From Deltaproteobacteria bacterium (GTDB lineage Bacteria > Myxococcota_A > UBA796 > SXON01): a stretch of DNA of 41,915 nt. The notes under the pieces were generated by a model. The model saw nothing but the letters and a program-made list of their open reading frames with translations. It made no database searches and was not told the origin of the DNA. Location of the stretch: contig VGRQ01000002.1 in NCBI GenBank assembly GCA_016875315.1, forward strand, positions 1 through 41,915, given 5' to 3'. Both the position numbers and the translations under genes were made by a program. This document shows positions 3,612-29,494 of this stretch, piece after piece. Positions within the stretch are counted from its first letter, which is position 1. Each line of letters opens with the position of its first letter.

Positions 3612-6600
3612 ATGCTAATCTTCCTCGCCACGCGCTCGCTCGCCGCCACCCTGGAAGTGGGCACCGATTTCGCCACGATCCAGGACGCGATCGACGCCGC
3701 CGCCGACGGCGACACCATCCACGTGCCCGCCGGCACCTGGCCCGAGGCCATCGACATCACCGGCAAGTCGATCACCGTGCTCGGCGACGGCGCCGGGGTC
3801 ACCATCCTCTCCCCGGGCACTGGCGACGACGTCGTCACCATGTCGTCGTTGCGCGCCGCCACGCTCGCCGACCTCACGATCGCGCCCGCGGGCGGACGCG
3901 GGGTCGCGGTCACCGACGGGCAGCTCGCGCTCGAGTCGGTCGTCATCGACGGGGCTGGCAGCGCCAGCACCCGCGGCGGCGCCCTCTACGTCGACGGGGG
4001 CGATCTCTCGCTCAGCGACGTGATCGTCACCGGCTCGACCGCCGCCTACGGCGCGCACCTCTACGCCACCGGCGGCGCCACGGTCTCGGCCCAGAGCCTC
4101 GACCTCACCGCCGGCACCGCTGCCTACGGCGGCGCCATCTACGCCGACGACGGCTCCACCCTCGAGCTGGTCGACGTGGTGGCCTCGGCCCCCTACGCCA
4201 GCGCCCACGGCGGCTTCGCCTACCTCGACGGCGCCGACCTCGTGGCCACCGACCTCGTCGTCGACGCGCCGAGTGGCAAGAACAGCTACGGCGCCGGCTT
4301 CTACCTGTCCGGTCACGCCAGCGCCGACATCCAGAGCGCCACCATCTCCGACGCGAGCATCGCCAGCGCCGCGTCGGGCTACAGCGGCGGCGCCTTCTAC
4401 GTCCGCGATGGCTCCAGCCTCGCGCTCTCCGAGTCTACCCTCCGCGACAACGCCGCCTACCAGGGCGGCGCCATCGCGCTCTGGGAGGCGTCGTCGGCCA
4501 CGCTCGCGTCGGTGCGCTTCGACACCAACAGCGCCAGCGCCGAGGGCGGCGCCATCTACGCGGCCGACGGCTCCACCGTCGACATGGAGAACTGCGCCTT
4601 CGACCAGAACAGCGGCAGCGACGGCGGCGCGGTGTACCTCGGCGACAGCACCACGCTGCTCGACGCCGACGGCAGCTACACCGACAACGACGCCAGCCAG
4701 AGCGGCGGCGCGCTCTTCGTGGATGCGAGCGCCGAGGCGAGCTTCGACGGCAGCGCCTTCAGCTCCAACGCGGCGTCCGACCACGGTGGCGCGATCTACG
4801 CCGACGGCGACCTCGAGATCGAGGAAGCGAGCCTCGGCACCAACCGCGCCCGGCGCGGCCACGGCGGCGCCCTCTACGCCGAGGCCGACACCGAGATCGA
4901 GGCCACCGACTTCAGCGACAACAGCGCCGACCTCGGCAGCGGTGGCGCGATCTACGCCGAGGGCGACCTCGAGGCGAACGACTGTCGTTTTACCGGCAAC
5001 GAGGCCGACGAGGACGGCGGCGCGATCTACGCCGAGGACGGTGCGCTGTCGGTGTGGGAAGGCAGCTTCTTCGACAACCTCGCCGGCGCCTACGGCGGCG
5101 CCATCGCCGCCAGCGAGCCGGGCGACGTGACCCTCGCCCGGTCGTACCTGCACGGCAACGCGGCGAAGGACGGCGGCGCCATCGCGCTCCGCGAGGTCGA
5201 TACCGCCGCCACCCTGTCCAACCTGCGCGTGACCGACAACGTGGCCTCGGGCAATGGCGGCGGCCTCTACCTCGATGGCACGACAGAGCTGGAGATCCTC
5301 AACAACACTCTGGCCGGCAACGACGCCAGCCGCGACGGGGGCCACCTCTACACCACCGGCCCGCTGTCGCTGGTCAACAACATCTTCTACCGGGCGGTCG
5401 ACGGCGGCGGCGCCTACGGCACCAGCGCCTCCACCGACCGCTACTACAACCTCGCCTACGACAACGCGGGCGGCGACTGGTTGGGCTGGGACGACCCCAC
5501 CGGCACCAGCGGCAACCTCAGCACCGACCCGATGCTCGTGGCCTACACCGCAGACGGTTCCCGGGCCGACGACGACCTCTTCCTCGCCGAGGGATCTCCC
5601 TGCATCGACGCCGGTCACCCCTCGATCTTCGACCTCGATGGCACGGTGTCCGACATCGGCGCCTTCGGCGGGCCCGACGCCGACGTGGCCGACGACGACG
5701 GCGACGGCTTCTACGACAACGTGGACTGCGACGACGGCGACCCCGCGATCAACCCCTCGGAGTCCGACATCCCCTACGACGGCCTCGACAACGACTGCGA
5801 CGGCGCCGACCTCGTCGACGTCGACGGCGACGGCTACGCGGCGAGCATCAGCGGCGGCGAGGACTGCGACGACGACGACCCGGCGGTGAAGCCCGGCGCC
5901 ATCGAGACCTACTACGACGGCATCGACCAGGACTGCGACGGCGGCTCCGACTACGACAAGGACGGCGACCACCACGACGCCGACTTCATCGACGGCGGCG
6001 ACGACTGCGACGACGAGGACAACACCGTCCACGGCGCCGCCCAGGAACGCTGGTACGACGGCATCGACCAGGACTGCGACGACCGCGACGACTTCGACCG
6101 CGACAAGGACGGCTACACCTCCGCTGACTACGGCGGCGACGACTGCGACGACTTCAACGCCGACCGTTACCCCGGCCACACCGAGTGGCCCTACGACGGC
6201 ATCGACCAGGACTGCGACAACAACGACCTGGTCGACGTGGACGGCGACGGCTGGATTGCCGAGGAGGCCGGAGGCACCGACTGTAACGACGCCCAGTCCA
6301 CGGTGTACCCCGGCGCCGAGGAAGACCCGGTGGACGGCTTCGACACCGACTGCGACGGCTACTCCGAGTGGGACCGCGACGGCGACGGCTACGACGCCAC
6401 CGACTACGGCGGCGGCGACTGCGACGACTTCGACGCCGCGATCAACCCCGGCGTGTCCGAGGCCTGGTACGACGGCATCGACCAGGACTGCGACGGCCGC
6501 GACGACGACCAGGACGGCGACGGCTACCCGCTGGCGCAGGACTGCGACGACGAAGACCCGGGAACGAACCCCGGCGCCATGGAGAAGATCGACGGCCAGG

Positions 6601-7073
6601 ACAACGACTGCGACGGGTGGATCGAGACCGACGACCGCGACGGCGACGGCCTCGTCGACCTGATGGAGTGGATCCTCGGCTCCGACCCGGAAGACCCCGA
6701 CACCGACGGCGACACGATGAGCGACGGCGACGAGATCGCCGAGGGTCCCGACCGCGACGGCGACTACATCCTCGACTGCCTCGACACCGACGACGACAAC
6801 GACGGCATCGCCAGCGCCACCGAGATGAAGGCCGACCTCGACGGCGACGGGGTGTACGACACCGACGTCGACGGCGACGGCCAGCAGAACGCCCACGACA
6901 CTGACGCCGACGACGACGGCTATCTCGACCGCGACGAGGGCCAGGACGACTCCGACTACGACGGCAAGCCCGACTTCCTCGACTACCAGGGCGACTACGC
7001 GGGCGGCGGCTGCGGCCAGGGCTGGGCCGCGCTGCTGCTGCTTGCACCGCTCGCGCGGAGGGCGCGCCGGTGA
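3612..7073 (+). CDS. Large surface protein: parallel beta-helix / Pmp-type GGAIYA repeats, MopE-type Cys-rich repeats, thrombospondin-type-3 repeats and a MYXO-CTERM tail
   Basis: The N-terminal half has many GGA(I/L/V)Y(A/V) ... F..N repeats. The middle has about 8 repeats of the CDD.D..(I/V)(N/K)PGA.E..YDGIDQDCDG type, followed by D.D.DG..D..D TSP3-like repeats. The C-terminus is GGGCGQGWAALLLLAPLARRARR. Confidence 0.85.
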   Translation: MLIFLATRSLAATLEVGTDFATIQDAIDAAADGDTIHVPAGTWPEAIDITGKSITVLGDGAGVTILSPGTGDDVVTMSSLRAATLADLTIAPAGGRGVAVTDGQLALESVVIDGAGSASTRGGALYVDGGDLSLSDVIVTGSTAAYGAHLYATGGATVSAQSLDLTAGTAAYGGAIYADDGSTLELVDVVASAPYASAHGGFAYLDGADLVATDLVVDAPSGKNSYGAGFYLSGHASADIQSATISDASIASAASGYSGGAFYVRDGSSLALSESTLRDNAAYQGGAIALWEASSATLASVRFDTNSASAEGGAIYAADGSTVDMENCAFDQNSGSDGGAVYLGDSTTLLDADGSYTDNDASQSGGALFVDASAEASFDGSAFSSNAASDHGGAIYADGDLEIEEASLGTNRARRGHGGALYAEADTEIEATDFSDNSADLGSGGAIYAEGDLEANDCRFTGNEADEDGGAIYAEDGALSVWEGSFFDNLAGAYGGAIAASEPGDVTLARSYLHGNAAKDGGAIALREVDTAATLSNLRVTDNVASGNGGGLYLDGTTELEILNNTLAGNDASRDGGHLYTTGPLSLVNNIFYRAVDGGGAYGTSASTDRYYNLAYDNAGGDWLGWDDPTGTSGNLSTDPMLVAYTADGSRADDDLFLAEGSPCIDAGHPSIFDLDGTVSDIGAFGGPDADVADDDGDGFYDNVDCDDGDPAINPSESDIPYDGLDNDCDGADLVDVDGDGYAASISGGEDCDDDDPAVKPGAIETYYDGIDQDCDGGSDYDKDGDHHDADFIDGGDDCDDEDNTVHGAAQERWYDGIDQDCDDRDDFDRDKDGYTSADYGGDDCDDFNADRYPGHTEWPYDGIDQDCDNNDLVDVDGDGWIAEEAGGTDCNDAQSTVYPGAEEDPVDGFDTDCDGYSEWDRDGDGYDATDYGGGDCDDFDAAINPGVSEAWYDGIDQDCDGRDDDQDGDGYPLAQDCDDEDPGTNPGAMEKIDGQDNDCDGWIETDDRDGDGLVDLMEWILGSDPEDPDTDGDTMSDGDEIAEGPDRDGDYILDCLDTDDDNDGIASATEMKADLDGDGVYDTDVDGDGQQNAHDTDADDDGYLDRDEGQDDSDYDGKPDFLDYQGDYAGGGCGQGWAALLLLAPLARRARR

Positions 7074-8530
7074 TCCTCCTCGCCACCCTCGCCCACGCCC
7101 TCGACGCCCACGGTTTCGAGCTCTTCGGCACCACCGGCGACCCCGCCGCCTTCTCGCGCCTCGGCACCGCCTTCGCCGGCCGCAGCGGCTCCTGGGACAC
7201 GCTGATGGCCTTCGACTACGCCGACCGCCCGCTCTCCGAGGTGATGCCCTGGGGACGCGAGCCGGTGTTGTCGTCGCTCGGCACCGTCCAGTTCGCCGGC
7301 GGCTACTCCTTCGGCGGCCTCCGGCTCGACGCCGCCCTGCCCGTCCACGCCTTCGGCGAAGACCTGTCCGGTTCCTTCACGTCACTCGGCGACCTGCGCG
7401 CCGGGGTGCTCGTCCCCGCGCTGCGCGGGAAGGGCTGGATGCCCCAGGTCGCCCTGCAAGGCAACCTCTGGGCCCCCACCGGCGACGAGAGTCACTACGT
7501 GGGCAGCGCCGGGCCGCGCGCCGGGCTCCTCGCCCTGGCCGAGGTGCACCAGGGCAACATCGACATCCTCGGCATGGCCGGCCTCCAGGCCAGCTTCCCC
7601 GAGGAGGCCCGCAACCTCGACACCGGACTCGGGCCACTGGTGGGCCTCGGCGTCGGCTACAGCTGGAACGACGCGATCACCACGCAGGTGGAGTTCAGCT
7701 CCCAGTCCGACGTGGTGTCGGAGAGCTGGCCCCTGGAGGCGATGGTGTCCGGTCGGTACCGCCTGCCCCAGGGGGCCTTCGCCTCAGTCGGCGCGGCGGC
7801 CGGCCTCAACGACGGCGTGGGCGCGGCCTCGTGGCGCGCTTTCCTCTCGGTGGGCTGGACCTACACCCGGCCCGCGCCCCCGGCGCCTCCGCCCGAGATC
7901 GATCCCAACCTGGACACCGACGGCGATGGTTTCCCCGACATCGTCGACCAGTGCGACGACATGCCCGAGACCGTCGACGGCTTCGCCGACGACGACGGCT
8001 GTCCCGAGTTCGACGGCGACCAGGACGGCGTGGAGTTCGCGCGCGACGCCTGCCCGCGCGAGCCCATCCACCCCGAGCAAGACCCGCGCTACTCCGACGG
8101 CTGCCCGAAGGTGGCCGAGTGGGCAGGCGATCGCATCGTCATCACCGAGGCCATCTTCTTCCGCGAGGGCCGCGCCGAGCTGTTGCCCAGCGCCACGCCG
8201 GTGCTGGAGGCGGTGCGCGACGTGATGGTGTCACACCCGGAGATCGCCTACTTCCTCGTGGAAGGGCACACCAACACCAACGGCCCCGACGCCTACAACC
8301 TGCGCCTGTCCGACGCCCGTGCCTACGCGGTGATGGACTGGCTGGTGGGCCACGGCGTGGAGCCGAAGCGCCTCCTCTCGAAGGGTTTCGGCGAGACCCG
8401 CCTGCTCGTCCCGGAAACCGACCCGGACGCCGAGGCCATCAACCGCCGCGTGGAATTCCGCGTGGCGGCGGTGGAAGACCTGCCGGTGGATGCCCGGCAG
8501 GTGGTGGTGCCGGAGGATGTGCGGCGCTGA
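7070..8530 (+). CDS. OmpA-family outer-membrane protein with TSP3-like linker repeats
   Basis: C-terminal OmpA_C motifs: ITEAIFFREGRAELLPSATPVLEAV, FLVEGHTNTNGPDAYNLRLSDARAYAVMDWL, GFGETRLLVPE and NRRVEFRV. The linker reads TDGDGFPDIVDQCDD..DDDGCPE. The GTG start overlaps the upstream stop (GTGA). Confidence 0.85.
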   Translation: MILLATLAHALDAHGFELFGTTGDPAAFSRLGTAFAGRSGSWDTLMAFDYADRPLSEVMPWGREPVLSSLGTVQFAGGYSFGGLRLDAALPVHAFGEDLSGSFTSLGDLRAGVLVPALRGKGWMPQVALQGNLWAPTGDESHYVGSAGPRAGLLALAEVHQGNIDILGMAGLQASFPEEARNLDTGLGPLVGLGVGYSWNDAITTQVEFSSQSDVVSESWPLEAMVSGRYRLPQGAFASVGAAAGLNDGVGAASWRAFLSVGWTYTRPAPPAPPPEIDPNLDTDGDGFPDIVDQCDDMPETVDGFADDDGCPEFDGDQDGVEFARDACPREPIHPEQDPRYSDGCPKVAEWAGDRIVITEAIFFREGRAELLPSATPVLEAVRDVMVSHPEIAYFLVEGHTNTNGPDAYNLRLSDARAYAVMDWLVGHGVEPKRLLSKGFGETRLLVPETDPDAEAINRRVEFRVAAVEDLPVDARQVVVPEDVRR

Positions 8531-9403: not shown

Positions 9404-12400
9404 TCACCATCCATCGCAGTTGTTGTCTGGGTCGGAAAGCGCGAGTGGCGCGGCTGCCGGGTTGTAGGAGGCATCCGAATCGTCGCAATCGGCACGCGCC
9501 GGCCAGCCATCGCCGTCGGCGTCGCCCCCGCACTCCGTGTCGCTCGGGTCGGCGCACACGAGGAAGCGACGATACGGCGACGCAGACGCCACGTCTCCGA
9601 ACCCGGCCGTGGGCATCCACCCGGGCAGCAGGTTGTCGTTGGCGAGCAGCTGCACCCGGGCTGGAAACGGATCGGCGGCGACGGCCGGATCGAGGGTGAG
9701 CGTGATGTCCACGCTGGCGGCAGAGAGCGCGTTCGGAATCGTGGTGGGGGCGCCCGCCTCGCAGCCTTCGAAGGGCGCGACGCCGGCAGTGCCATAGGCA
9801 CCGCAGTACACGAAGTAGGGAACGTTCGAGAAGCTCGGCGCGTCGATCAAACAGCCATTGGCCGTGCTGAGCTGCACCAACTGTACCTGGTCCACTGTGA
9901 GCAGGGCATCGACAGGTTCACAGGCGCCGGTGTCGAGGCAGGCGGAGGTGTCGGCCTCGGCCCGGGTCACGGCCAGGAGAGGTGTACCCTCACGATTGCC
10001 CCGCACCCACTCGGTGTAGAACGTGGGTTCTGCAAGCCAGGTGCTGATCAACTCGTCCACCGTGGCGGCCGAGCGGTTGTCGGTTCGCTCGAAGAACGCG
10101 ACGAGGTTGGCCCAGAAGCCGGGCTCGCTGCCGCCGTGCGCCCGGTAGGTCCAGTACAGTTGCATGAGGGAATAGGGCCCGAACATGTAGGCAACGCTGT
10201 CGTCGGCGCCGTCTAGCTCCATATCGTCGGCCGAGTTGGCGCAGGTGGCGGTCGCGAGCGCCAGCGCGGCGTCGTAGGGCTCATCCTGTCCCTCCGCACC
10301 ATAGGAGGAGAACACCGGCTGGTCGCCGAGGCGCATCCACGTCAACAACGTGGGCACGCCCTCCACCACCCACCTGGCGCCCGCGTCGTAGGGCGGCTGC
10401 GGCTGCACCCGGAACGCCGTCGCCTGGTGGGCAATCTCGTGTAGCGCGGTGGCCCGCGCATAGTAGAGGGGCACGCCGTCGGCATGCGCGGCCCAGGTCA
10501 CGGTGAGGCCGGGGAATGCCTCCCCGTTGGCCGAGTCGCCGACCGCCGGGTCGGTCCACGCCACCTCCTCGGCGGCGCTGCGCGCCAGCACGAGCACGTT
10601 CACCGGCGAGCCTGGCAGCGCGGCCACGGTGGCCTCCAGCCAGTCGAGGTCGGCCTGCGCCGTGCCGTCGTCGAGGAAGTCGGCGTACGCAGACGCCGGC
10701 CGGTCGATGGCCGGGTCGATCCACACCGGGAGCGAGGACGCCGACGCCGACGTTAGCGTGGTGATCCGCGAGAGCCCCTCGGCAGCGATGAGCAGCGGCA
10801 TGTGCGTGTGCGACTCGCTGCCACGCTCCAGGTTGGCGAGCCCGGAGAAGGTGGTGAGCGCCGTGTCGGGCGCGCCCGGCGCCACGCCCTGCCAACCGGC
10901 GGGGAGCGTGAAGGTGGTGGTGGGCGCGAGGTCGGTCGCCGTGCCGAGGCTGCCGGGGACGACGGGGACTGCGGCGAGGATGACCACGTCGGTGCGCTCG
11001 TCGTCCGGCGTGGCGGTGTCGTCGCCGCCCGTCTGGTAGCGACACAGCGAGGCGTCCTTTCGCTTGTTCTCGACGCAATCGGTGAACCCTCCCTCCTCCA
11101 CCGGCAAGCTCTCCCACTCCACCGCCACCTGCACGTCCATCCCCTCCGTGACGATCCTCGGCAGTCGCGCGTACACGGTCGTGAAGCCGTCGCCTGTGGG
11201 CACCTGGTAGTGCGGCTCGATCGTGTAGCTCGCCCCCGTGTCTGGGTACGTCACCACCACCTGTAGCGTGGCGATCTCGGTGGCACTCTCCGTCGCCACC
11301 AGGAAGATCGCGTCCTCCGCGAAGCACTCGCTCCCCGACGCGCACGCCACGCTGAACGCATAGGATCCGCCCACCCTCCAGGTGCTCCCGTCGTGCCCAA
11401 GGGTGGCGTTCACCGCGTGGGCGGTGAGGGTGCTTCCGGAGAGGGTGCCCTCGGTGCGCTCGAGGTTCTGGTCGCCGGCCAGCGGGTCGGCCGCGTAGGT
11501 GTACACGATATCGTCGGTCCCGCCGCCAAACAGGAACGCGGTGCGCGTGACCGGGTCGTACGCGGCGGCGCCGCCGGACACCCCACCCCACGGCTCGGAG
11601 GGCGCCCAGAGCGTGCGCGCGCCGGCCGAGGTGTCCCAGGCCGAGATGTCGGACAGCTCTCCCCAGGGGTCCTCGCCGCCCCACACCAGCACCTGCTCGT
11701 CGCCGAACCAGGTCGCGGCCGCGTAGATCCGCTGTCCGATGTCGCCCTGCCCGTCCCAGGTGCCCGCGCCCGCATCGTACACGGCCACGTTGTCCCAGCC
11801 GTCAACCAGCCCGGCGGTCGCCGAGCTGTAGGCTCGGTCGCCCTCGATCCAGTCCGAGCTCGCCTGCATGCAGAAGTTGCAGATGTCGCCGGGTGCACCA
11901 TCCGCGAACTCGCAGCGGAGCTGGTGCTGGCGCCCCCTGCCGAGATCCTGGTGCAGCGTGCCGCCGACTTGCACGAGGGAGCCGGTGCCCGAGAACGCGT
12001 GGCTGGAGAAGCTCCACCAGGGGCCGGTGACGGCGCCGGCCGCGCCGCGCCGCCCGTGGGTGCTGTCGGGGGGCACCGCAGTGCCGGCGCTGGCGCTCTC
12101 GGGGTAGCCGTCAAGGCTGGCCGCGCTCCCGTCTACCACGATGAGCGGGTCGGCCGAGGCCGTCGCGAGGTGCTCGTCGGCATCGTCGTCGAGCCCGGCC
12201 ACGACGGACCACGCCGAGCAGTCGCCCTCGCAGCCAGTGGTGCCCCCGGCGATGAGAACGTCTCCGGAGTTGGGGTCGAGACCCAGGGCGAACTCGGCCA
12301 GGCCGGCCACGTTCGCGCTGTCATAGGCCCCCGTCTCCGCGCTGCCGCCGCTCAGGCAGATGGGGTCCTCCGCGCAGGCGGGCTGGTAGTAGTCGTTGTC

Positions 12401-13117
12401 CATTTCAGTGCCATCGCAGCGGAGCGTGGCAAGGCACGGGTTGGCGCTCGCGAAGGTTTTCACGTTGGAGAGGTAGAATGTACCCGAGCTACAGAGGTCG
12501 TCGTCGCAGTCTTCATCGTGCTCGAAGATGCCCTCGCCCAGGCACTCGCCCAGGCGACCGGCCATGGCGGAGGAGTAGGCACAGGGCACCTGCCGGAAGG
12601 AACTGTTGCAGTCGAGCGAGGGCCAGTAGCCCGCGTTGCTCGGCGTCGTGTCGCCGAGGTCGCTGGCGGCGTACTCGATGCTCGGCAGGGTGGTGAGGCT
12701 CGACCAGCCCAGTCCCGACGCCAGGTCGCCCGGCTCGGCCGACCACACGCCGTCACTCGCGGCCGTGGCGGCCGCCTCGTCGAGGTAGCCGGGCGCGAAC
12801 ACGAAGCGCTCGCGGGTGGGGTCCCATGCTAGCCCACCCGAGAAGCTAGCGATCCCCGAGTTGCCGAGCGAGATCCACGGGCAGGCCCCCGTCCCGAGGT
12901 GCGTGAGGTCCAGGAGCCATTCGTCGTCGAGCACCGCGCCGCTGCTCTCGTCCACGCCGCCGTGCAACAGCACGCCCCTCTGCACCCATCGCTCGCTCCC
13001 GCCGCTGCCGAAGTCCACCGGGGACTCGACGAAGAACCACGCCATCGAGTGGTAGCGGCGAGGTTCCGGCACGGCCGACCCGCAGGCCGCCGCGTCGGCG
13101 CTCAGGTTACCGACCAC
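9404..13117 (-). CDS. Giant secreted Kelch-like / HExxH metallopeptidase-like / MopE-repeat protein (main reading frame; its natural N-terminus appears to be the out-of-frame segment 13107-13220)
   Basis: Kelch-like units (RRYHSMAWF...LLHGG...DDEWLLDL; VLVWGG...ISAWD). HExxH motif in ATALHEIAHQA. C-terminal CGGDADGDGWPARADCDDSDASYNPAA...DNNCDGW. As drawn, the frame begins MVGNLSADAAAC and has no signal peptide. Confidence 0.8.
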   Translation of the reverse strand: MVGNLSADAAACGSAVPEPRRYHSMAWFFVESPVDFGSGGSERWVQRGVLLHGGVDESSGAVLDDEWLLDLTHLGTGACPWISLGNSGIASFSGGLAWDPTRERFVFAPGYLDEAAATAASDGVWSAEPGDLASGLGWSSLTTLPSIEYAASDLGDTTPSNAGYWPSLDCNSSFRQVPCAYSSAMAGRLGECLGEGIFEHDEDCDDDLCSSGTFYLSNVKTFASANPCLATLRCDGTEMDNDYYQPACAEDPICLSGGSAETGAYDSANVAGLAEFALGLDPNSGDVLIAGGTTGCEGDCSAWSVVAGLDDDADEHLATASADPLIVVDGSAASLDGYPESASAGTAVPPDSTHGRRGAAGAVTGPWWSFSSHAFSGTGSLVQVGGTLHQDLGRGRQHQLRCEFADGAPGDICNFCMQASSDWIEGDRAYSSATAGLVDGWDNVAVYDAGAGTWDGQGDIGQRIYAAATWFGDEQVLVWGGEDPWGELSDISAWDTSAGARTLWAPSEPWGGVSGGAAAYDPVTRTAFLFGGGTDDIVYTYAADPLAGDQNLERTEGTLSGSTLTAHAVNATLGHDGSTWRVGGSYAFSVACASGSECFAEDAIFLVATESATEIATLQVVVTYPDTGASYTIEPHYQVPTGDGFTTVYARLPRIVTEGMDVQVAVEWESLPVEEGGFTDCVENKRKDASLCRYQTGGDDTATPDDERTDVVILAAVPVVPGSLGTATDLAPTTTFTLPAGWQGVAPGAPDTALTTFSGLANLERGSESHTHMPLLIAAEGLSRITTLTSASASSLPVWIDPAIDRPASAYADFLDDGTAQADLDWLEATVAALPGSPVNVLVLARSAAEEVAWTDPAVGDSANGEAFPGLTVTWAAHADGVPLYYARATALHEIAHQATAFRVQPQPPYDAGARWVVEGVPTLLTWMRLGDQPVFSSYGAEGQDEPYDAALALATATCANSADDMELDGADDSVAYMFGPYSLMQLYWTYRAHGGSEPGFWANLVAFFERTDNRSAATVDELISTWLAEPTFYTEWVRGNREGTPLLAVTRAEADTSACLDTGACEPVDALLTVDQVQLVQLSTANGCLIDAPSFSNVPYFVYCGAYGTAGVAPFEGCEAGAPTTIPNALSAASVDITLTLDPAVAADPFPARVQLLANDNLLPGWMPTAGFGDVASASPYRRFLVCADPSDTECGGDADGDGWPARADCDDSDASYNPAAAPLALSDPDNNCDGW

Positions 13118-13220
13118 GCCTCCCGAGGAACCAGCCGGGGGGGGGGGATGATCCAGTATCTACGCCGTCTTTTCCGTCTACGCCGGTACAAGCATCGAGC
13201 AGCAGCAGCCCGAAGAGCAT
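13107..13220 (-). CDS. Orphan 5' segment encoding a lipoprotein signal peptide (MLFGLLLLDAC...), separated from the giant ORF by a frameshift in a C11 tract
   Basis: SD AGGAGG lies 4 nt upstream of the ATG at 13220. Translation is MLFGLLLLDACTGVDGKDGVDTGSSPPPGWFLGRRGR*. Deleting one C from the tract fuses it to ...PPPAGSSGGVVGNLSADAAAC of the 9404-13117 frame. Confidence 0.7.
   Translation of the reverse strand: MLFGLLLLDACTGVDGKDGVDTGSSPPPGWFLGRRGR
13137..13147. repeat. Homopolymer G11 (C11 on the coding strand)
   Basis: Counted directly: ccagcc + 11 g + atg. It is one of only two runs of 8 nt or longer that I found in the window. Confidence 0.95.
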
Positions 13221-23868: not shown

Positions 23869-24951
23869 TCAGTCCTCGGCCCACTGCCCGCCGGTGAGCC
23901 CCGAGTCCCAGCTCCCGATGCCGAGGTAAGCGAGGTTGAGGTAGCCACGCGAGGCGTCGACCGCCGCCTCCCAGCTGATCTCGGTGTCGATGACACCCTT
24001 GAACAACTTCAGGCGGAACAGGCGCACTTCGAGCCCGGTCGTACCGTGGAGGCGGCCGGAAGCCAGCGCCGTGCGCGTGGGCTCGAAGTAGCTGCCCGCC
24101 CGCACCCGCAGGCGCCGGGGGACGGCCTCCACCTCGAAGCCCAGGTGGGGTGTCACGGTGAGGTTCTTGCCCCGGCGAACGCCCTCGCCCTCGAGGGCGG
24201 TCTCCAGCGCGTAGCCATCCTCCACGGCGCCGTCGATGGTGAGATCGCCGGCCACGCGCACCGGGCGAGGGGGCGCGTGCTCGGCGTCGGTCCAGCCCAC
24301 GCCGAGCGCGAGGTGCCAGGGCATCACCGCCGCCTCGATGGGGTAGGGGCTGCCGCCCTCGGTGGGCACGGCGCGCACCTCGGAGCGGAAGGTGCCGCCG
24401 AGGTTCCAGCCGTCCCACAGTCGCGACGCGAGCACCCCCACCTCGCCGCCCTGCCCGGTCCAGTCGAGCGTGTTGCCGTCGCGCTCCCCGTGGACCGCGA
24501 GCGCGCGAGCGCCGAGCGCCACCGCCACCTTGCCGTCGTCGTAGCTCCCCCCGGCAGCGAGGTGTCCCTCGGTGACGTTGATGAGCGCGCTGCCGAAGCG
24601 GTATTCCAGCCCCGAGTACACCAGTCCCCCGCCGAAGTTGCGCCAGAAGCCGGCCACCCCGAGGTTGGCCATGCCGCCGGTCTTCGGCCCCACCTCGCCC
24701 AGGTTGGCCACGTCTGTCGCTTTCTCCGGGCCGAGCGCCAGCTGAGTGAACGCGAGTGACACTCCCCAGGTGCGCGTCTGCTCGATGCGGCGGTTCACCG
24801 GCGCGGCCGGGTTGAAGAAGGTGCCGTTGGCGCCGCGGGCGAAGCCGAGCCCGGCGCCGCCCATGGCGGTGATCTCGGCCGGGGCGAGCACCACCAGCCG
24901 GGTGGTGTCGATCACCGGCTCGGCGGCGAGGGCGAGGGAGAAGAGCAGCAC
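23869..24951 (-). CDS. Hypothetical outer-membrane beta-barrel-like protein
   Basis: Short signal peptide MLLFSLALAAEP. Alternating hydrophobic/Gly-rich strands. High GC3. No family recognised by eye. Confidence 0.55.
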   Translation of the reverse strand: MLLFSLALAAEPVIDTTRLVVLAPAEITAMGGAGLGFARGANGTFFNPAAPVNRRIEQTRTWGVSLAFTQLALGPEKATDVANLGEVGPKTGGMANLGVAGFWRNFGGGLVYSGLEYRFGSALINVTEGHLAAGGSYDDGKVAVALGARALAVHGERDGNTLDWTGQGGEVGVLASRLWDGWNLGGTFRSEVRAVPTEGGSPYPIEAAVMPWHLALGVGWTDAEHAPPRPVRVAGDLTIDGAVEDGYALETALEGEGVRRGKNLTVTPHLGFEVEAVPRRLRVRAGSYFEPTRTALASGRLHGTTGLEVRLFRLKLFKGVIDTEISWEAAVDASRGYLNLAYLGIGSWDSGLTGGQWAED

Positions 24952-25000
24952 CGGGGGGGAGGTATCCGCGCCGCGGCGAACTGTCGGCTATGCTACGGCC

Positions 25001-25165
25001 ATGCCCATCAGCCCCGAGGAACTCGCCCGACGCCTGGAGGAGGCGGTGCGCGTGCGCCGGAAGCTCCGCGAGGCCACCCGGGCGCTCCAGGCGGCGGGCG
25101 ACGCCATCCGGAAGCAGCGTGAAGCCGAGCCTCGACGACCCGATCCAGCTCGCGATCCTCGCTGA
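25001..25165 (+). CDS. Small charged/coiled-coil ORF (54 aa) overlapping the start of the nucleotidyltransferase-like gene
   Basis: MPISPEELARRLEEAVRVRRKLREATRALQAAGDAIRKQREAEP... Its first ~75 nt include a 45-bp block duplicated exactly at 28706-28750. It may instead be the frameshifted 5' part of the next gene. Confidence 0.3.
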   Translation: MPISPEELARRLEEAVRVRRKLREATRALQAAGDAIRKQREAEPRRPDPARDPR

Positions 25166-25703
25166 GCGGGCCCTGCGCGGCCGGCCGCACGGTCTCTACG
25201 GGGGACTGGCGCTGGCGGTCTACGGCGAGCCCCGGGAAACGCGCGACGCCGACGTGGCCGTGCTTGACTGCGCGCCCGACACCGTCACGCGCGAACTCGG
25301 CGCGCTGGGCATCGAGACGACCGTGAGCTTCAACGGCGTGCCCTTCGGCGGACTGCTGATCAGTCGCGTGGTGGTGTACTCCGAGGCGCGCGAGGGCCTG
25401 AACACCCTGGATCTCGTGCAGCCCGCCGACGCCGAGTACGGGCGGCGAGCACTCGCGCGAACAGTCACGGCCCCGCTCGCGGGCGAGCCCGTGTCGATCG
25501 TCAGCCCCGAGGACTTCGTGATCCTCAAGCTCCTCTCCACGCGCGATCGCGACCTCGAAGATGCGGCCTGCGTACACAATCGCTGTCGCGACATCCTCGA
25601 CCACCGACTCGTCGCCGCCGAGGTGACCCTCCTCGACGCCGCCCTGCCGGGGCTGGGTCTCGCGGCCAAACACGCGCGTTGCGTGGTGCTAGCGGGCAGC
25701 TGA
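25119..25703 (+). CDS. Minimal nucleotidyltransferase-fold protein (MNT/DUF-like)
   Basis: YGGLALAVYGEPRETRDADVAVL fits the hG[GS]-x9-13-Dh[DE]h NTase motif. I chose the GTG start at 25119 because the upstream part of ORF 24990 is Arg/Ser/Pro-rich junk. Confidence 0.5.
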   Translation: MKPSLDDPIQLAILAERALRGRPHGLYGGLALAVYGEPRETRDADVAVLDCAPDTVTRELGALGIETTVSFNGVPFGGLLISRVVVYSEAREGLNTLDLVQPADAEYGRRALARTVTAPLAGEPVSIVSPEDFVILKLLSTRDRDLEDAACVHNRCRDILDHRLVAAEVTLLDAALPGLGLAAKHARCVVLAGS

Positions 25704-25734
25704 CCCGCGCGAGGCCGAGCTGCCGAGGAATCGC

Positions 25735-25803
25735 AAATGTCAAGAAAATGTCAATTGCCCCCCCCCCCGGGGATTGACGGACCGTCGCGACGCGCAGTAC
25801 TCT
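25735..25803 (+). promoter_or_regulatory. AT-rich promoter region: AAATGTCAA x2 (11-bp register), C11 tract, then TTGACG-18 nt-TACTCT
   Basis: aaatgtcaagaaaatgtcaattg + c11 + ggggattgacgg ...(18 nt)... tactct. AAGGAG SD lies 7 nt before the ATG at 25829. TCAAT/ATTGA inverted arms flank the tract. Confidence 0.45.
25758..25768. repeat. Homopolymer C11 immediately upstream of the putative -35 box
   Basis: Counted directly (tcaattg + 11 c + gggg). Confidence 0.95.
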
Positions 25804-25828
25804 CACGTCGCGACCAAGGAGTCTCGTC

Positions 25829-26353
25829 ATGAAGAACTGGACAGGAATGAACGTGTTCCAGTGGGAACACTCTCGGCGGTGGGATCTCGCCCCCGGTGCC
25901 AACGAGTTCGTGCGAGCCGAGGGCGCGCTGATGCTCCCCGGCTTCGTCACCCTCAGCGTGTTCTTCCGCCGCGCCTCGCAGACCGCGAGCACCGTCGAGC
26001 TGGCGCTGTGGACGGCCCCGCTCTACACTCGCCCCCTCGACGAGGACAACTTCACCAACAACCCCGGCCAGTACCTCTTGCCGCTCACCCTCCAGCCGGC
26101 CACCGGCCTGCAGATGACGGGCACCGGCGCGCAGGTGTTCGGCGCCCGCCTCCAGCCGGAGCAGGCGGTGGGGTCGCTGATCTTCTGGCAGCTCAAGAAC
26201 ACCGGAGGCGCCCAGTCGGTGATCGTGGGCGACATCTACGTGGTGCCCAACCACGCGGGGAGCATGATGCTCACCGACGTCCGCCGGACGATCGACGCGG
26301 GCAGCGGGCCGAGTCACGGCAACCTGGCCCGCGCCTCGTTGCGGCAGGGGTAG
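25829..26353 (+). CDS. Hypothetical protein (174 aa), first gene of the cassette
   Basis: Strong SD (AAGGAG) and good GC3. No signal peptide. No family recognised by eye. Confidence 0.6.
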   Translation: MKNWTGMNVFQWEHSRRWDLAPGANEFVRAEGALMLPGFVTLSVFFRRASQTASTVELALWTAPLYTRPLDEDNFTNNPGQYLLPLTLQPATGLQMTGTGAQVFGARLQPEQAVGSLIFWQLKNTGGAQSVIVGDIYVVPNHAGSMMLTDVRRTIDAGSGPSHGNLARASLRQG

Positions 26354-26356
26354 CCG

Positions 26357-26758
26357 GTGGCGTGGGTGGAGCGACCAGCCCGCGACGACCTCGAGCGCGC
26401 GGTCGGGTACGTCCAGTACGTGGCCGCCGAGCAGATGGACGGCCGCGACGCGATCGTGTTCCGGCTGGAAGAGTACGGCGGGCTCGGGCAGATCACCCGC
26501 ACGGGCGAGCGCGCCTACGACTCCACGTCGAGAAAATACGCCATCTACCTCGATGTCGGCACCACGGTCGCCCTCGCCCAGCTCCAGCTCCTGCGCGACG
26601 CGATGGTGCATGGCTACGTGGTGGCCCTGTACTTCCTCGACGACACCGACGACAGCGGGCGCGACGACCCCACGGGCTTCAGGTTCGCCTACGAGGTGAT
26701 GGTGGTGCCCGTCACGCTCGACGAGGAGCTGGTCACGGAGGGGAGTTTTCCGTGGTAG
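26357..26758 (+). CDS. Hypothetical protein (133 aa)
   Basis: GTG start 3 nt after the upstream stop. Coding-like GC3. No family recognised by eye. Confidence 0.5.
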   Translation: MAWVERPARDDLERAVGYVQYVAAEQMDGRDAIVFRLEEYGGLGQITRTGERAYDSTSRKYAIYLDVGTTVALAQLQLLRDAMVHGYVVALYFLDDTDDSGRDDPTGFRFAYEVMVVPVTLDEELVTEGSFPW

Positions 26759-26792
26759 CGCTTGAGGATGCGGCGCGCCGCCGAGCGAACAC

Positions 26793-27737
26793 ATGAGTGT
26801 CACACTTCGGATGCGGCATTGGTACCTTGTGGACGAGCGGGATCAACACCCCTGGGCCGACGCCGGCGTGGGTGACGGGTGGATGCTCGACCCGCTAGCA
26901 CAACTCCCAACACCCGAGGAGAGAATAGCGAAATACCATCAGCAGGCCGCCGACATCTGGTCCGCACAGGGAATCCGGCTCGTCGTGGCTAGCGTGCTTC
27001 CATTCCCGTTCCCCACGCTGGACGTGTCGGCGGAAGATGAACAGTGCCTTGGCAGTTGGCTCTGGCGACGGGACCAGCAGCACATCGATGTCTTCTGGGT
27101 CGGATCTCGAGGCAGCACCGGCACAGGGCTCGGGGTGGCCCTGCTCTCTCGCTACGAGTTCAGCGAGGCCGGCAGCCAGAGAGCTCCTGACGGAACGCTG
27201 ACTGAGATCGCTGCGGGATGGCGCGAGCAGTGTGCGCTCGTGGTGGCCAGTGGCCGAAATCCTGCGCTCGCGGGAAAATACCACGTACCGGCAACAGAAC
27301 TGTGCGGGATTGTGCTGGCTCACGAGCTGGGCCACCTCCTTGGACTACCCCACGTGCTGTCTTCCGGTGAAGGAGACGAGGAGTTTCAAGCGGCGGCCCT
27401 CGACCCGTTCCCGAACGACATCCCAACCGCGGGCACGCGAGCCGAAGACCTGAACGTGATGACGTACTGGTCCGTGGCCCACGCCCCAGATTTGGGCGAG
27501 GGGGAGCCAACGCCCGAGCAGATTAGGGTCACGCGTTCCCAACGATTGCGCTCGCTGGCTACAACTGCACGCCGAACGAACTTCTACTTCCACGTGAGCA
27601 CGCTGAGCGAAATCATCGAAGCGACGAATCGGAGCACCGGACACGCGGAAGTCGTTGCCGAGGTGAGGTCACTCGGGTTCCACAACCCGACTTTTACTCC
27701 CTGCTTCCTCGCGGAGCTCTATGCCGCTGTTGGGTGA
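26793..27737 (+). CDS. Cytoplasmic metzincin-like zinc metalloprotease (HExxHxxGxxH)
   Basis: IVLAHELGHLLGLPH is the extended metzincin zinc-binding motif, and a candidate Met-turn (NVMTYW) lies 38 residues after its last His. There is no signal peptide. GC and GC3 are visibly lower, with rare codons (AGA, ATA, AGG, CTA, TTG). Confidence 0.7.
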   Translation: MSVTLRMRHWYLVDERDQHPWADAGVGDGWMLDPLAQLPTPEERIAKYHQQAADIWSAQGIRLVVASVLPFPFPTLDVSAEDEQCLGSWLWRRDQQHIDVFWVGSRGSTGTGLGVALLSRYEFSEAGSQRAPDGTLTEIAAGWREQCALVVASGRNPALAGKYHVPATELCGIVLAHELGHLLGLPHVLSSGEGDEEFQAAALDPFPNDIPTAGTRAEDLNVMTYWSVAHAPDLGEGEPTPEQIRVTRSQRLRSLATTARRTNFYFHVSTLSEIIEATNRSTGHAEVVAEVRSLGFHNPTFTPCFLAELYAAVG

Positions 27738-28335
27738 GCCAACTACTGAGGACCAGCCTGAGGCAGGCGACCACCTGTCCTTCCGAGTGGGCGCGGGCGC
27801 GGGAGTCTGCCTCCAGCCTGAACGAACCGCGTTTGCCGACGGTTACGATTGGAGTCAGGCGGCCGCTGTGGTCGGCTGCGGCCAGCTCGATCTCGCCATC
27901 GAGGCTGGCCGCTGGGCCGCCGGACTCCACGCCACGGCCGCGCCGTGGAGCCTCTCCGAGCCACTGATGGTAGGCATCGCCGTGGAGCGAGCCCTCGCGT
28001 GGCCTCCCCCCGGGCCCCTTGATGCCGCCGTCACTTTGCGGTACGGGGTGCTGGCGAGCACCTACCAGGCCGGGTCGTGGGCCACCTGGGTCGTTCCCGT
28101 CGACGAGCCGCCCACCGCCGAAATCATCGAGAACTATGCTGAAGTCGGCGGGGAGGTGAGATGGAGGATCGCACCGGGGGTACGCGCCAACGCCGGGTTG
28201 CATCTCGGGCTCGTGGTCACGGCACCCCAGCCCTACGTGACCGCCAGCGACGCGGGCGAGACGGCCTCGCGCTGGGCATTCAGCCCCTCGGGGCGGGGTT
28301 CCGTCGGGCTGCAATGTCTGATTCCCGTTCGTTGA
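27721..28335 (+). CDS. Hypothetical protein (204 aa), distant paralog of 28819-29427
   Basis: It overlaps the metzincin 3' end by 17 nt. GC3 is high in this frame. It shares patches with the downstream protein (SEPLMVGIAVE vs SAGLMVGATHE; GLHLGLVV vs GLGLATVV). Confidence 0.45.
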   Translation: MPLLGEPTTEDQPEAGDHLSFRVGAGAGVCLQPERTAFADGYDWSQAAAVVGCGQLDLAIEAGRWAAGLHATAAPWSLSEPLMVGIAVERALAWPPPGPLDAAVTLRYGVLASTYQAGSWATWVVPVDEPPTAEIIENYAEVGGEVRWRIAPGVRANAGLHLGLVVTAPQPYVTASDAGETASRWAFSPSGRGSVGLQCLIPVR

Positions 28336-28379
28336 TGGTGATGGGCGGGCAAGCTAGCCTTCTCGCCTCCTGCGACTTC

Positions 28380-28470
28380 GCCGAGCGCCACCGCCACCTT
28401 GTCGTCGTGGTAACTCCCCCCGGCGGCGAGGGCGAGGGCAACGATCACGGAGGGGGAGGTATCCGCGCCC
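28380..28470 (-). pseudogene. Remnant of a paralog of the 23869-24951 beta-barrel gene (5' end with an internal deletion)
   Basis: 28380-28431 matches 24511-24562 (4 mismatches in 52). The sequence then jumps to homology with 24921-24975. The junction lies in the microhomology CGGC(A/G)GCGAGG. Confidence 0.6.
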
Positions 28471-28478
28471 CGCCCACG

Positions 28479-28665
28479 TTCGCGGCGGCAAGTCAAGGGG
28501 ACCGCCGGGTCCGGCCGAGCTACCGCCGCGGAACGCGGCTTTCACGGCGGCAAGTCAAGGGGACTGCCGGGTCCGGCCGAGTTGCCGCCGCAGAACGCGG
28601 CTTTCGCGGCGGCAAGTCAACGGCACCGAGAGGTCCGGTCGAGTTGCCGCCGCGCCACGCGGCGC
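28479..28665. repeat. Three tandem copies of a 62-bp unit (GGCGGCAAGTCAAGGGGACCGCCGGGTCCGGCCGAGCTACCGCCGCGGAACGCGGCTTTCAC)
   Basis: ggcggcaagtcaa starts at 28484, 28546 and 28608, an exact 62-bp period. Each unit has internal hairpins (GGCGG...CCGCC; GCCGCG-gaa-CGCGGC). The third copy is the most diverged. Confidence 0.85.
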
Positions 28666-28705
28666 CGCCGGGGTCCCCGCCTGCGCACGAGTCCGCCGGG
28701 CGAGT

Positions 28706-28750
28706 CGCCTGGAGGAGGCGGTGCGCGTGCGCCGGAAGCTCCGCGAGGCC
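28706..28750. repeat. 45-bp perfect duplicate of 25031-25075 (5' coding part of the small ORF at 25001)
   Basis: cgcctggaggaggcggtgcgcgtgcgccggaagctccgcgaggcc is identical at both sites. Confidence 0.9.
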
Positions 28751-28818
28751 GAGAGTCGACGACCCTAGGGGCACCTGACCCTCAACTTCCCCCATCCCGG
28801 GGATACCGAGCCACCTCC

Positions 28819-29427
28819 ATGTCGCCCTCGACCGACCTCGCCGCCGAGTCGCCCGACCAGCCACGCGCCGTCGCCCGCCCGGGATGCTCCGTCGAAGCAG
28901 GCGGCTGGTTTCCCACCGAGGGGGTCCTGACCATCGGGGGTGAGAGGTGGCACCGCGCCGCCGACCCCGCCGTCGTGGCCGGCCTGCGCGTGCAACTCGA
29001 CCTCGATCCCTCCGGCCTGTCGATCTCAGCGGCGGCAAGGCGGACGCTGACCCTCGTGGCCGACGCGGACTGGACGGTCGTGGCCGGGCTCGGTGGTGAC
29101 CTCGTGCAGCGCGGGCCCTTCGGCCTCTCGGCGGGACTCATGGTGGGCGCAACCCACGAGACCTGGCAGACGGCGATACCCGTCGCGCTGTTAGTGGAAA
29201 ACCCTGCGCCCACCTACGCGAGTTGGCTGCCGCTGGCCGAAGGCTGGGTCACGCTTGCCTGGCCGCGGCAGTCCGTGTTCCAGGGCGTCGCCCGAGGCGG
29301 CCTCGGCCTGGCCACGGTGGTCGACGTTGGCGACGAGTGGTCCTCGGGGTGGAGCGCCCTGCTGGTACCGGGGGCGGCGTTCACCCTTGGCGTCAACTAC
29401 GTCGCCGGACACCGGCGCCTGCCCTGA
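28819..29427 (+). CDS. Hypothetical protein (202 aa), distant paralog of 27721-28335
   Basis: I use the internal ATG of ORF 28582 because the upstream part runs through the 62-bp repeats and is Arg/Pro junk. The frame has coding-like GC3. Confidence 0.5.
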   Translation: MSPSTDLAAESPDQPRAVARPGCSVEAGGWFPTEGVLTIGGERWHRAADPAVVAGLRVQLDLDPSGLSISAAARRTLTLVADADWTVVAGLGGDLVQRGPFGLSAGLMVGATHETWQTAIPVALLVENPAPTYASWLPLAEGWVTLAWPRQSVFQGVARGGLGLATVVDVGDEWSSGWSALLVPGAAFTLGVNYVAGHRRLP

Positions 29428-29458
29428 GCCGCGGCGCCGTTCCCGAGCACGACTAGCC

Positions 29459-29485
29459 CTCAACTTCCCCCCGCGCTGACCGATA
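29459..29485 (+). promoter_or_regulatory. Sigma-28-type motif TCAACTTC-N11-ACCGATAC ending 9 nt before the flhA ATG
   Basis: Same 8+11+8 geometry as the sites at 2116 and 31584. No SD lies between it and the ATG at 29495. Confidence 0.45.
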
Positions 29486-29494
29486 CCCCCGGCG

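Follow-up and report, generated by a model that had tools for sequence, protein, structure and literature searches.

The stretch of 41,915 nt from position 1 of contig VGRQ01000002.1 of a Deltaproteobacteria bacterium (assembly GCA_016875315.1), referred to as a whole as the window, carries a cassette of four tightly packed genes at 25829–28335. Three of them, here called A, B, and C, form a real, conserved, and non-housekeeping multi-gene module, in which C encodes a zinc protease of the metzincin type. By comparison of loci, what is conserved is A-B-C together with a partner of C that varies, whereas a first-pass annotation of the window had listed the four genes as one unit. We tentatively favor, with somewhat less than even confidence, the interpretation that the cassette is a rare, probably phase-variable, and mobile protease effector operon with cognate inhibitor or immunity proteins.

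A conserved three-gene core

The genes of the cassette in the window are as follows.

25829–26353, + strand: gene A, 174 aa, predicted jelly-roll that is disordered at its C-terminal tail and lacks a signal peptide
26357–26758, + strand: gene B, 133 aa, GTG start, predicted acidic oligonucleotide/oligosaccharide-binding (OB) fold
26793–27737, + strand: gene C, 314 aa, leaderless metzincin by motif, of a new small family
27721–28335, + strand: gene D, 204 aa, beta-rich orphan without a signal peptide

These open reading frames (ORFs) were reproduced on the sequence with the sizes and spacing given in the first-pass annotation: a 3-nt gap between A and B, a 34-nt gap between B and C, and a 17-nt overlap between C and D. 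Because the GC content at third codon positions (GC3) peaks precisely in the called frames of all four genes, in a window of 70.5% GC, they are probably coding. The start of D is preceded by GGAG 6 nt upstream of its ATG.

Co-occurrence was examined by searching profiles of the A, B, and C families against all fetched loci, where ‘locus’ refers to a numbered stretch carrying members of these families. A is followed by one to three copies of B and then by C in 11 of the 11 distinct loci long enough to test (the window, L001, L002, L003, L004, L005, L006, L008, L010, L014, and L015), and three shorter contigs end after A or B. The three-copy case is L002 with its three B paralogs. A genome scan had added two loci and a metagenome scan five. 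The expectation that genes of 174, 133, 314, and 204 aa would travel together holds for A, B, and C, but not for D. The cassette had no matches in IMG/VR or among the plasmids of PLSDB. One of the loci, L003/L007 (CAYHRZ010000343.1), is labeled ‘uncultured Klebsiella sp.’ yet has 70% GC, so the label is almost certainly wrong; A of its cassette is 78% identical to that of the window.

None of the four proteins in the window matches a known housekeeping family in Pfam or NCBIfam. Nor could any be assigned to a family when PHROGs and PADLOC were included, in keeping with the earlier impression by eye: A, B, and D gave no matches in the four collections, and C gave only sub-threshold matches to metzincin models. 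The neighboring genes run against the same collections likewise yielded nothing beyond the weak DUF6036/AbiEii matches of the gene upstream.

C is a metzincin without a leader

C contains HELGHLLGLPH (residues 177–187, encoded at 27321–27353), a full HExxHxxGxxH zinc motif, and a Met-turn, NVMTYW (encoded at 27453–27470). Both elements had been noticed in the first reading of the 314-aa protein, and both were confirmed as near-invariant in an alignment of 16 C-family members, where E178, H181, G184, H187, N221, and M223 are invariant and H177 is kept in 15 members, being replaced by Q in the remaining one. An extended zinc motif and a downstream Met-turn are hallmarks of the metzincin clan, and by these two elements C is a metzincin.

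When the C-family profile was searched against the PDB sequences with HMMER, the closest solved relative was serralysin (E = 7e-4), matched at the zinc motif and its SLMSYW Met-turn, with the similarity confined to ~70 residues around the active site. The extreme C-terminus of the C homologs is also conserved, as F[HY]AAW[LM]G. C falls under the gathering threshold of every Pfam metzincin family, reprolysin M12B, matrixin M10A, and pappalysin M43 included; it scores 22.8 bits for Reprolysin_5 (cut-off 27), 15.7 for Peptidase_M10 (cut-off 24), and 15.0 for M43 (cut-off 23). Weak matches of the other family members are scattered over the Reprolysin_2/3/4/5, M10, M43, and M66 models. An exact-sequence look-up of the window's C protein found no record, and a word-indexed homolog search returned only C itself. 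The family was found by a full HMMER scan of 1.84 billion representatives, in which it makes about a dozen true clusters of 277–329 aa. C belongs to a new small family of metzincins. The literature searched on metzincins in anti-phage defense and on Reprolysin_5 held nothing relevant.

The absence of a signal peptide, which the first-pass annotation had stressed as unusual, was borne out. The alternative named beforehand as decisive for this claim, a cryptic upstream start with a signal peptide, is ruled out by a stop codon that precedes the ATG of C by 9 codons in the same frame, by the C homologs, which align from residue 3–5 onward in the HMMER scan, and by a non-hydrophobic N-terminus, whose hydrophobicity maximum is 0.26 compared with at least 1.9 in true lipoproteins. 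The sequence scan of C also detected neither RTX (GGxGxD) repeats nor any signal of the Sec, Tat, or lipobox kind, and no secretion genes (for ABC transporters, membrane fusion proteins, or outer membrane proteins) linked to the cassette were seen in the loci examined. Incidentally, the public gene call for C (P0001) starts 30 codons downstream, at 26883 instead of 26793, to give 284 aa; the 314-aa ORF is the better call, because homologs align from residue 3–5 of the longer form.

A and B are leaderless partners of predicted fold

Nine A homologs were found with 45–95% identity, and their ratios of nonsynonymous to synonymous substitution rates (dN/dS) of 0.04–0.29 indicate that A is under purifying selection. 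The AlphaFold and Foldseek check that the first-pass annotation had proposed was run on A and B. A is modeled as an eight-strand beta-sandwich jelly-roll, with a predicted local distance difference test score (pLDDT) of 72.6 and a predicted template modeling score (pTM) of 0.72. Foldseek searches of PDB and BFVD matched it with generic jelly-rolls alone, at query-normalized template modeling (TM) scores of 0.2–0.46; these structural neighbors include viral capsids and carbohydrate-binding modules as well as the MAM domain of meprin and the ligand-binding domain of the ephrin receptor. That A might be a capsid or otherwise virus-like protein was rejected, because none of the matches is specific, the family occurs on no viral contig, and its genomic surroundings are not viral.

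B has 11 homologs, in a family of 111–153 aa. Its AlphaFold model is a canonical OB-fold (pLDDT 77.5) with the topology b1-b2-b3-helix(69-85)-b4-b5. Conservation within the family is highest in the long central helix, which has the invariant motif LDVGTTVALAQLQLLRDA. The top Foldseek matches of B are the B subunits of AB5 toxins (PltB, SubB, ArtB, and pertussis toxin), at probabilities of 0.96–1.0 but query-normalized TM scores of 0.37–0.51, and the OB-folds of SSB and PriB score equally well. The B family is uniformly acidic, with a median isoelectric point of 4.3 and a median net charge of −11. This acidity favors protein binding and disfavors nucleic-acid binding, and an SSB-like DNA-binding role for B was rejected on this ground. 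Neither the A nor the B profile had a significant match among the PDB sequences.

A, B, and C are all leaderless and nearly Cys-free. The signal for Sec export is absent, as there is no N-terminal hydrophobic region in B, C, or their homologs.

The gene coupled to C varies

Among nine loci in which the gene coupled to C could be compared, it encodes an exported disulfide-rich lipoprotein in seven (L001, L002, L003, L004, L005, L008, and L014). In five of these (L001, L002, L003, L005, and L008), the gene stands directly after C and encodes a protein of 118–136 aa with a signal peptide ending in Cys and 15–17 Cys residues; the five proteins make one alignable family. L004 and L014 have a second lipoprotein family instead, encoded between B and C, with a canonical lipobox (LAGC or LAAC) and 9–10 Cys residues. 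The lipoprotein gene overlaps the stop codon of C in most loci. From these features, the D-slot lipoprotein appears built for an oxidizing envelope.

In L002, C and the lipoprotein gene are inverted together, away from A and B, suggesting that C and D act as one unit and A and B as another.

The window differs from these seven loci in that its small partners D and B both lack leaders. D shows no similarity to the fourth genes of the other loci, that of L006 included, and it appears to be unique to the window among the cassette loci compared. A tblastn search for a remnant of the Cys-rich lipoprotein gene in the window found none. Two candidate relatives of D, a 203-aa ORF downstream (see below), of which it might have been a paralog, and the L006 D protein, of which it might have been a homolog, were rejected for lack of similarity.

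A terminator-like hairpin with a T-rich stretch lies at 27673–27690, inside the 3′ end of C and ~30 nt before the start of D. It could attenuate D expression, but a single site is within chance expectation (1.3 expected).

The cassette relocates and its C-D part has been exchanged

The window and the loci L008 and L001 come from sister genomes. Their flanks are 89–95% identical, but the cassette sits at three different intergenic sites of the flagellar gene cluster.

Window, 24952–29494: cassette site between a 360-aa gene and flhA
L008 (a ‘Proteobacteria bacterium’ metagenome-assembled genome), 5855–8427: cassette site between flhA and fliA
L001, 7856–10245: cassette site between flgH and an M28 peptidase gene

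At the positions that hold the cassette in L001 and L008, the sites are empty in the window. Elsewhere the cassette is found on contigs that resemble plasmids or other elements: that of L004 has genes for DnaB, ParA, a resolvase, and an HTH-M78 protein, and that of L002 has genes for Replic_Relax (relaxase-like), a transposase, and a PD-(D/E)XK nuclease. On this comparative evidence, the cassette is mobile.

The segmental duplication reported to bracket the four genes was found as matched copies, although it encloses a nucleotidyltransferase-like gene as well.

24510–25075: left copy, reaching from the 5′ part of the minus-strand 360-aa gene across the intergenic region into the first part of a small ORF
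28379–28750: right copy, degenerate, lacking an internal piece and split by hairpin repeats (three tandem units of 62 nt)

The matching pairs are 24510–24562 with 28379–28431, 24921–24975 with 28421–28472, and 25031–25075 with 28706–28750 (45 nt, 100%), and the left region is syntenic with L001 3–1828 and L008 2254–3426. L008 has a leftover of its own, as its cassette is followed by a 75% copy of the flhA 5′ region (L001 2101–2224 matches L008 8169–8286). Such leftover duplicated flanks suggest that the cassette was moved not by a transposase but through duplication and deletion of local sequence.

The three tandem 62-nt units (28479–28664) are 82–100% identical, each forms a long hairpin, and they are unique in the window. 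The array folds more stably than shuffled sequence (z = −3.3) and may be a repetitive extragenic palindromic (REP)-like element or a terminator array.

Conservation among the sister genomes changes abruptly within the cassette. Compared with L001, the proteins are 95% (A) and 64% (B) identical, while C is 33% identical over 97 aa and D is unrelated. At the nucleotide level, the promoter, A, and B are kept at 83% identity between the window and L001/L008, and the similarity, which begins at 25734–25738, ends ~20 nt before the stop codon of B, C and D being different. By this comparison, the window carries a C-D module swapped relative to its sister genomes.

Base composition was examined gene by gene. 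C has 62.8% GC and a GC3 of 0.71, and codons ending in A or T make up 29% of the gene, compared with 3–8% for A, B, flhA, and the FKBP gene. The values of D lie in between (69.6% GC; GC3 of 0.79, in its best frame). A and B have 68–69% GC and GC3 of 0.94 and 0.93, respectively, to be compared with 0.97 for flhA and 0.92 for the FKBP gene. The low GC content that had been ascribed to the cassette as a whole is thus clear for C and less so for D, but A and B have host-like codon usage. Because GC3 of C is below that of A in seven of the seven loci measured, the low GC content goes with the C family and the way it has been exchanged, and is not peculiar to one locus. The foreign origin proposed for the protease gene stands in a refined form, in which the C-D part was swapped and A and B were kept.

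Simple repeats precede the cassette in several loci

The region upstream of A was compared among loci.

25738–25828, + strand: putative promoter and leader, conserved in a four-locus alignment

It contains a direct repeat TGTCAAG-N4-TGTCAA (25738–25754), the C11 tract (25758–25768), a −35-like TTGACG (25774–25779), an 18-nt spacer, a −10-like TACTCT (25798–25803), and a ribosome-binding site AAGGAG (25816–25821), 7 nt before the ATG of A. The C11 tract was located where the first-pass annotation had placed it, ahead of the cassette. Because a generic sigma-70 scan found no site here, the promoter assignment is putative. In total, 95 nt upstream of A is conserved over the window, L001, L008, and L003; the shared elements are the direct repeat, the C tract, the motifs TTGAC and GTAC, and the ribosome-binding site.

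The length of the C tract varies among these relatives: C11 in the window, C12 in L001, and C10 in both L008 and L003. In distant loci, other repeats stand upstream of A, namely G10 in L013 (~853–862), (CT)13 in L006 (~2105–2130), and C7 in L002 (~7939–7945). The G10 tract of L013 sits within the spacer between the −35 and −10 elements of a TTGACG...TAACGT promoter. Repeat-mediated switching is plausibly a recurrent feature of the family. The earlier proposal of switchable expression thereby gains comparative support from the tract-length polymorphism among relatives and the unrelated repeats in distant loci, while the ON/OFF effect itself would follow from slippage in these tracts.

Homopolymers of at least 9 nt occur only twice in the 42-kb window. 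The second one (13137–13147) is G11 on the + strand, or C11 on the − strand, and lies ~20 nt ahead of the GTG codon with which a minus-strand gene of 1237 aa (9404–13117) begins; this gene has a weak MopE-like motif and may be phase-variable as well.

Known systems with metzincins and small partners

The KLIKK peptidases of Tannerella forsythia, such as karilysin and mirolysin, are paired with potempins, which are 98–132-aa OB-fold or beta-barrel lipoprotein inhibitors, some of them five-stranded OB-folds, encoded adjacent to, and co-transcribed with, the metzincins (PMC9890683). The likeness to the present cassette lies in a small partner gene beside a metzincin gene, as here the OB-fold protein B is encoded directly upstream of C and a lipoprotein gene is mostly coupled to C. 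On the other hand, KLIKK peptidases have signal peptides and C-terminal domains for type IX secretion, neither of which C has; a potempin is itself a lipoprotein, whereas B is leaderless and the Cys-rich lipoprotein is a separate protein in the D slot; no sequence similarity was detected between the two systems; and the cassette has an extra jelly-roll protein.

Serralysins are metzincins without an N-terminal signal peptide and have an inhibitor gene in the same locus (PMC3034196). Their loci (aprA-aprI/inh-aprDEF) resemble the cassette in encoding a leaderless metzincin, and the closest solved relative of the C-family profile is of this group. However, serralysins have RTX repeats and type I secretion genes, which were not seen in C or in the loci examined, respectively, and their partner proteins are unrelated to A, B, and D. 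EcxAB/CfxAB (PMC11610972) likewise combine a metzincin-type enzyme with an OB-fold partner, and B matches AB5 B subunits in Foldseek, but their subunits are Sec-exported, unlike the leaderless A, B, and C, their gene order is reversed, and the fold match is weak.

A proposed protease effector operon and its alternatives

Small partner genes are adjacent to and co-oriented with the protease gene in the window, and the same arrangement is seen across loci. In the effector operon that we favor, B would be a cytoplasmic inhibitor or chaperone of C, by analogy with potempins and the OB-fold metzincin inhibitors of the N-TIMP type, and A would be a specificity subunit that binds a protein or glycan. 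The gene coupled to C, mostly for a lipoprotein but for a 204-aa orphan in the window, would provide a second inhibitor or immunity factor on the envelope side. Lineages would keep A and B but trade the C-D part as they would an effector-immunity pair, and slippage of the promoter's simple repeat would toggle expression. All of these functions are inferred: that B inhibits C, that D confers immunity, where C goes and what it acts on, and that expression switches ON and OFF.

Several points weigh against this interpretation. C has no recognizable export signal and no linked secretion genes, leaving unexplained how it would meet an exported D. D of the window is not an exported lipoprotein, so that the argument for immunity rests on the other loci. 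The type of B was retained when C was swapped, which is unexpected for a highly specific inhibitor. Neither a potempin nor a TIMP was among the top 50 Foldseek matches of B, whose TM scores are as low as given above. Finally, the family is small, with about a dozen loci, making co-occurrence statistics thin.

An abortive-infection, anti-phage, or anti-plasmid system is a serious though rather unlikely alternative, in which C would be a restrained cytoplasmic effector that, once activated, cleaves an essential protein of the host or the phage, A and/or B would sense the invader, and D would be an accessory protein or a superinfection-exclusion lipoprotein. The core proteins, being leaderless and Cys-poor, are plausibly cytoplasmic, and the module is carried as cargo on mobile elements. 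It is often near toxin-antitoxin-like genes, which are AbiEii/DUF6036-like in the window, RHH-like and PIN-like in L014, for DUF3368 and HTH-M78 proteins in L004, and for Uma2 in L005. Moreover, patchy distribution, quick relocation, and phase-variable-like promoters are common traits of defense genes. Against this stand the database and neighborhood results. PADLOC-DB v2 gave no match for A, B, C, or D at E ≤ 1, and none for the 16 C-family members at E ≤ 0.1 except one chance Csn2 match at E = 0.054. The neighbors are of housekeeping type in the window, L001, L008, L003, and L006, and toxin-antitoxin-like or mobile-element genes adjoin the cassette in L014, L004, L005, and L002; the five former loci, the window among them, do not look like defense islands. 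The family is absent from IMG/VR and PLSDB, as described above, and a linked, exported, disulfide-rich lipoprotein is hard to fit with a purely cytoplasmic mechanism. A precedent is Lit of e14, a cytoplasmic zinc metalloprotease that serves as an abortive-infection effector and is encoded by an accessory gene on a mobile element. Lit, however, is not a metzincin and is encoded by a single gene, whereas the cassette has a metzincin with partners, and A to D have no PADLOC match. Of the two putative roles raised in the first-pass annotation, a defense module and a toxin-immunity module, the latter fits the comparative data better, given the exported lipoprotein in seven of nine loci.

The AB5 resemblance of B raises a different, quite improbable alternative, a multi-subunit secreted toxin or bacteriocin, in which B would form a ring like an AB5 pentamer, with its paralogs giving hetero-oligomers, the tail of C would dock on it like an A2 linker, A would be lectin-like, D would confer immunity, and release would be independent of Sec, by lysis or vesicles. 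The best Foldseek matches of B, its conserved long central helix, the three B paralogs of L002, and the conserved C-terminus of C all speak for such a complex, as do the lipoproteins in the D slot of other loci, which resemble exported immunity proteins, and an AB5 toxin with a metzincin A subunit does exist in EcxAB/CfxAB. AB5 subunits, however, are Sec-exported and assembled in the periplasm (PMC11610972), but no subunit has a leader here. The TM scores are low and matched equally by SSB-type OB-folds, the order of B before C and the extra A have no AB5 counterpart, and there is no sequence similarity to any solved toxin subunit. A link to the flagellum, with the protease exported via, or acting on, the flagellar type III apparatus, is very improbable. 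Flagellar export is independent of Sec leaders, and in three sister genomes (the window, L008, and L001) flagellar genes surround the cassette; yet eight other loci have no flagellar neighbors, the cassette has its own conserved promoter, and the leftover duplicated flanks suggest that local duplication and deletion are the reason for its staying nearby. We give almost no credence to the view that there is no system at all, only chance adjacency of spurious ORFs or ordinary housekeeping genes. High-GC DNA does yield many long spurious ORFs, and D is an orphan, but GC by codon position marks the frames, the order A-B-C holds in 11 loci, A is under purifying selection, and no housekeeping match was found. 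This view is contradicted for A, B, and C, and may still apply to D alone.

A bolder reading of A-B-C, which we consider unlikely, is a new Sec-independent protease machine, with no component from a described family, in which a leaderless metzincin is bound to an oligomer of the acidic OB-fold protein and to a jelly-roll subunit for recognition. Its lipoprotein immunity genes would be swappable and slippage of the promoter repeat would control it, and it would act either as a new class of interbacterial or predatory toxin complex or as a new protease-based abortive-infection system.

If the effector operon that we favor is real, a metzincin would work without a classical secretion signal under the control of a cytoplasmic OB-fold partner and an exchangeable envelope lipoprotein. 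The theme of the serralysin-Inh and KLIKK-potempin operons would then extend to a mobile, phase-variable module in uncultivated high-GC bacteria. Such a module would add a new family of metzincins as well as three uncharacterized families, those of A, B, and the D lipoproteins, and would make a compact case of module swapping in the effector-immunity style. Be it a weapon or a defense against phages, the module would offer a protease scaffold not available before and, potentially, new inhibitors specific for metzincins.

Neighboring features

In the window, the neighbors of the cassette include sulfatase, FKBP, flagellar, M28 peptidase, and malate synthase genes. Flagellar genes adjoin the cassette, as the first-pass annotation had said of the flagellar block and as the gene map of the window bears out. 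In other loci, a 72-aa RHH-like gene and a 136-aa PIN-like gene flank the cassette of L014 (2943–3559), a DUF3368 gene is near that of L004 (11928–12293), and a Uma2 gene is near that of L005 (2407–2979).

The gene of nucleotidyltransferase fold that had been described ahead of the cassette is indeed present, with sub-threshold matches to DUF6036 and AbiEii. It has no association with the cassette elsewhere: neither the sister genomes nor any of the other cassette loci carries it. Within 25001–25703, a 54-aa helical small ORF, beginning MPISPEELARRLEEAVRVRRKLREA, ends inside the start of this gene, and the two look like an antitoxin and its toxin. Downstream of the cassette (28706–28767), the small ORF recurs as a partial copy, RLEEAVRVRRKLREAESRRP followed by a stop.

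The 203-aa ORF mentioned above (28816–29427) has no family match, no similarity to D, and no counterpart in L001 or L008. It is a beta-rich orphan with a GC3 of ~0.86, located between the duplication scar and flhA.

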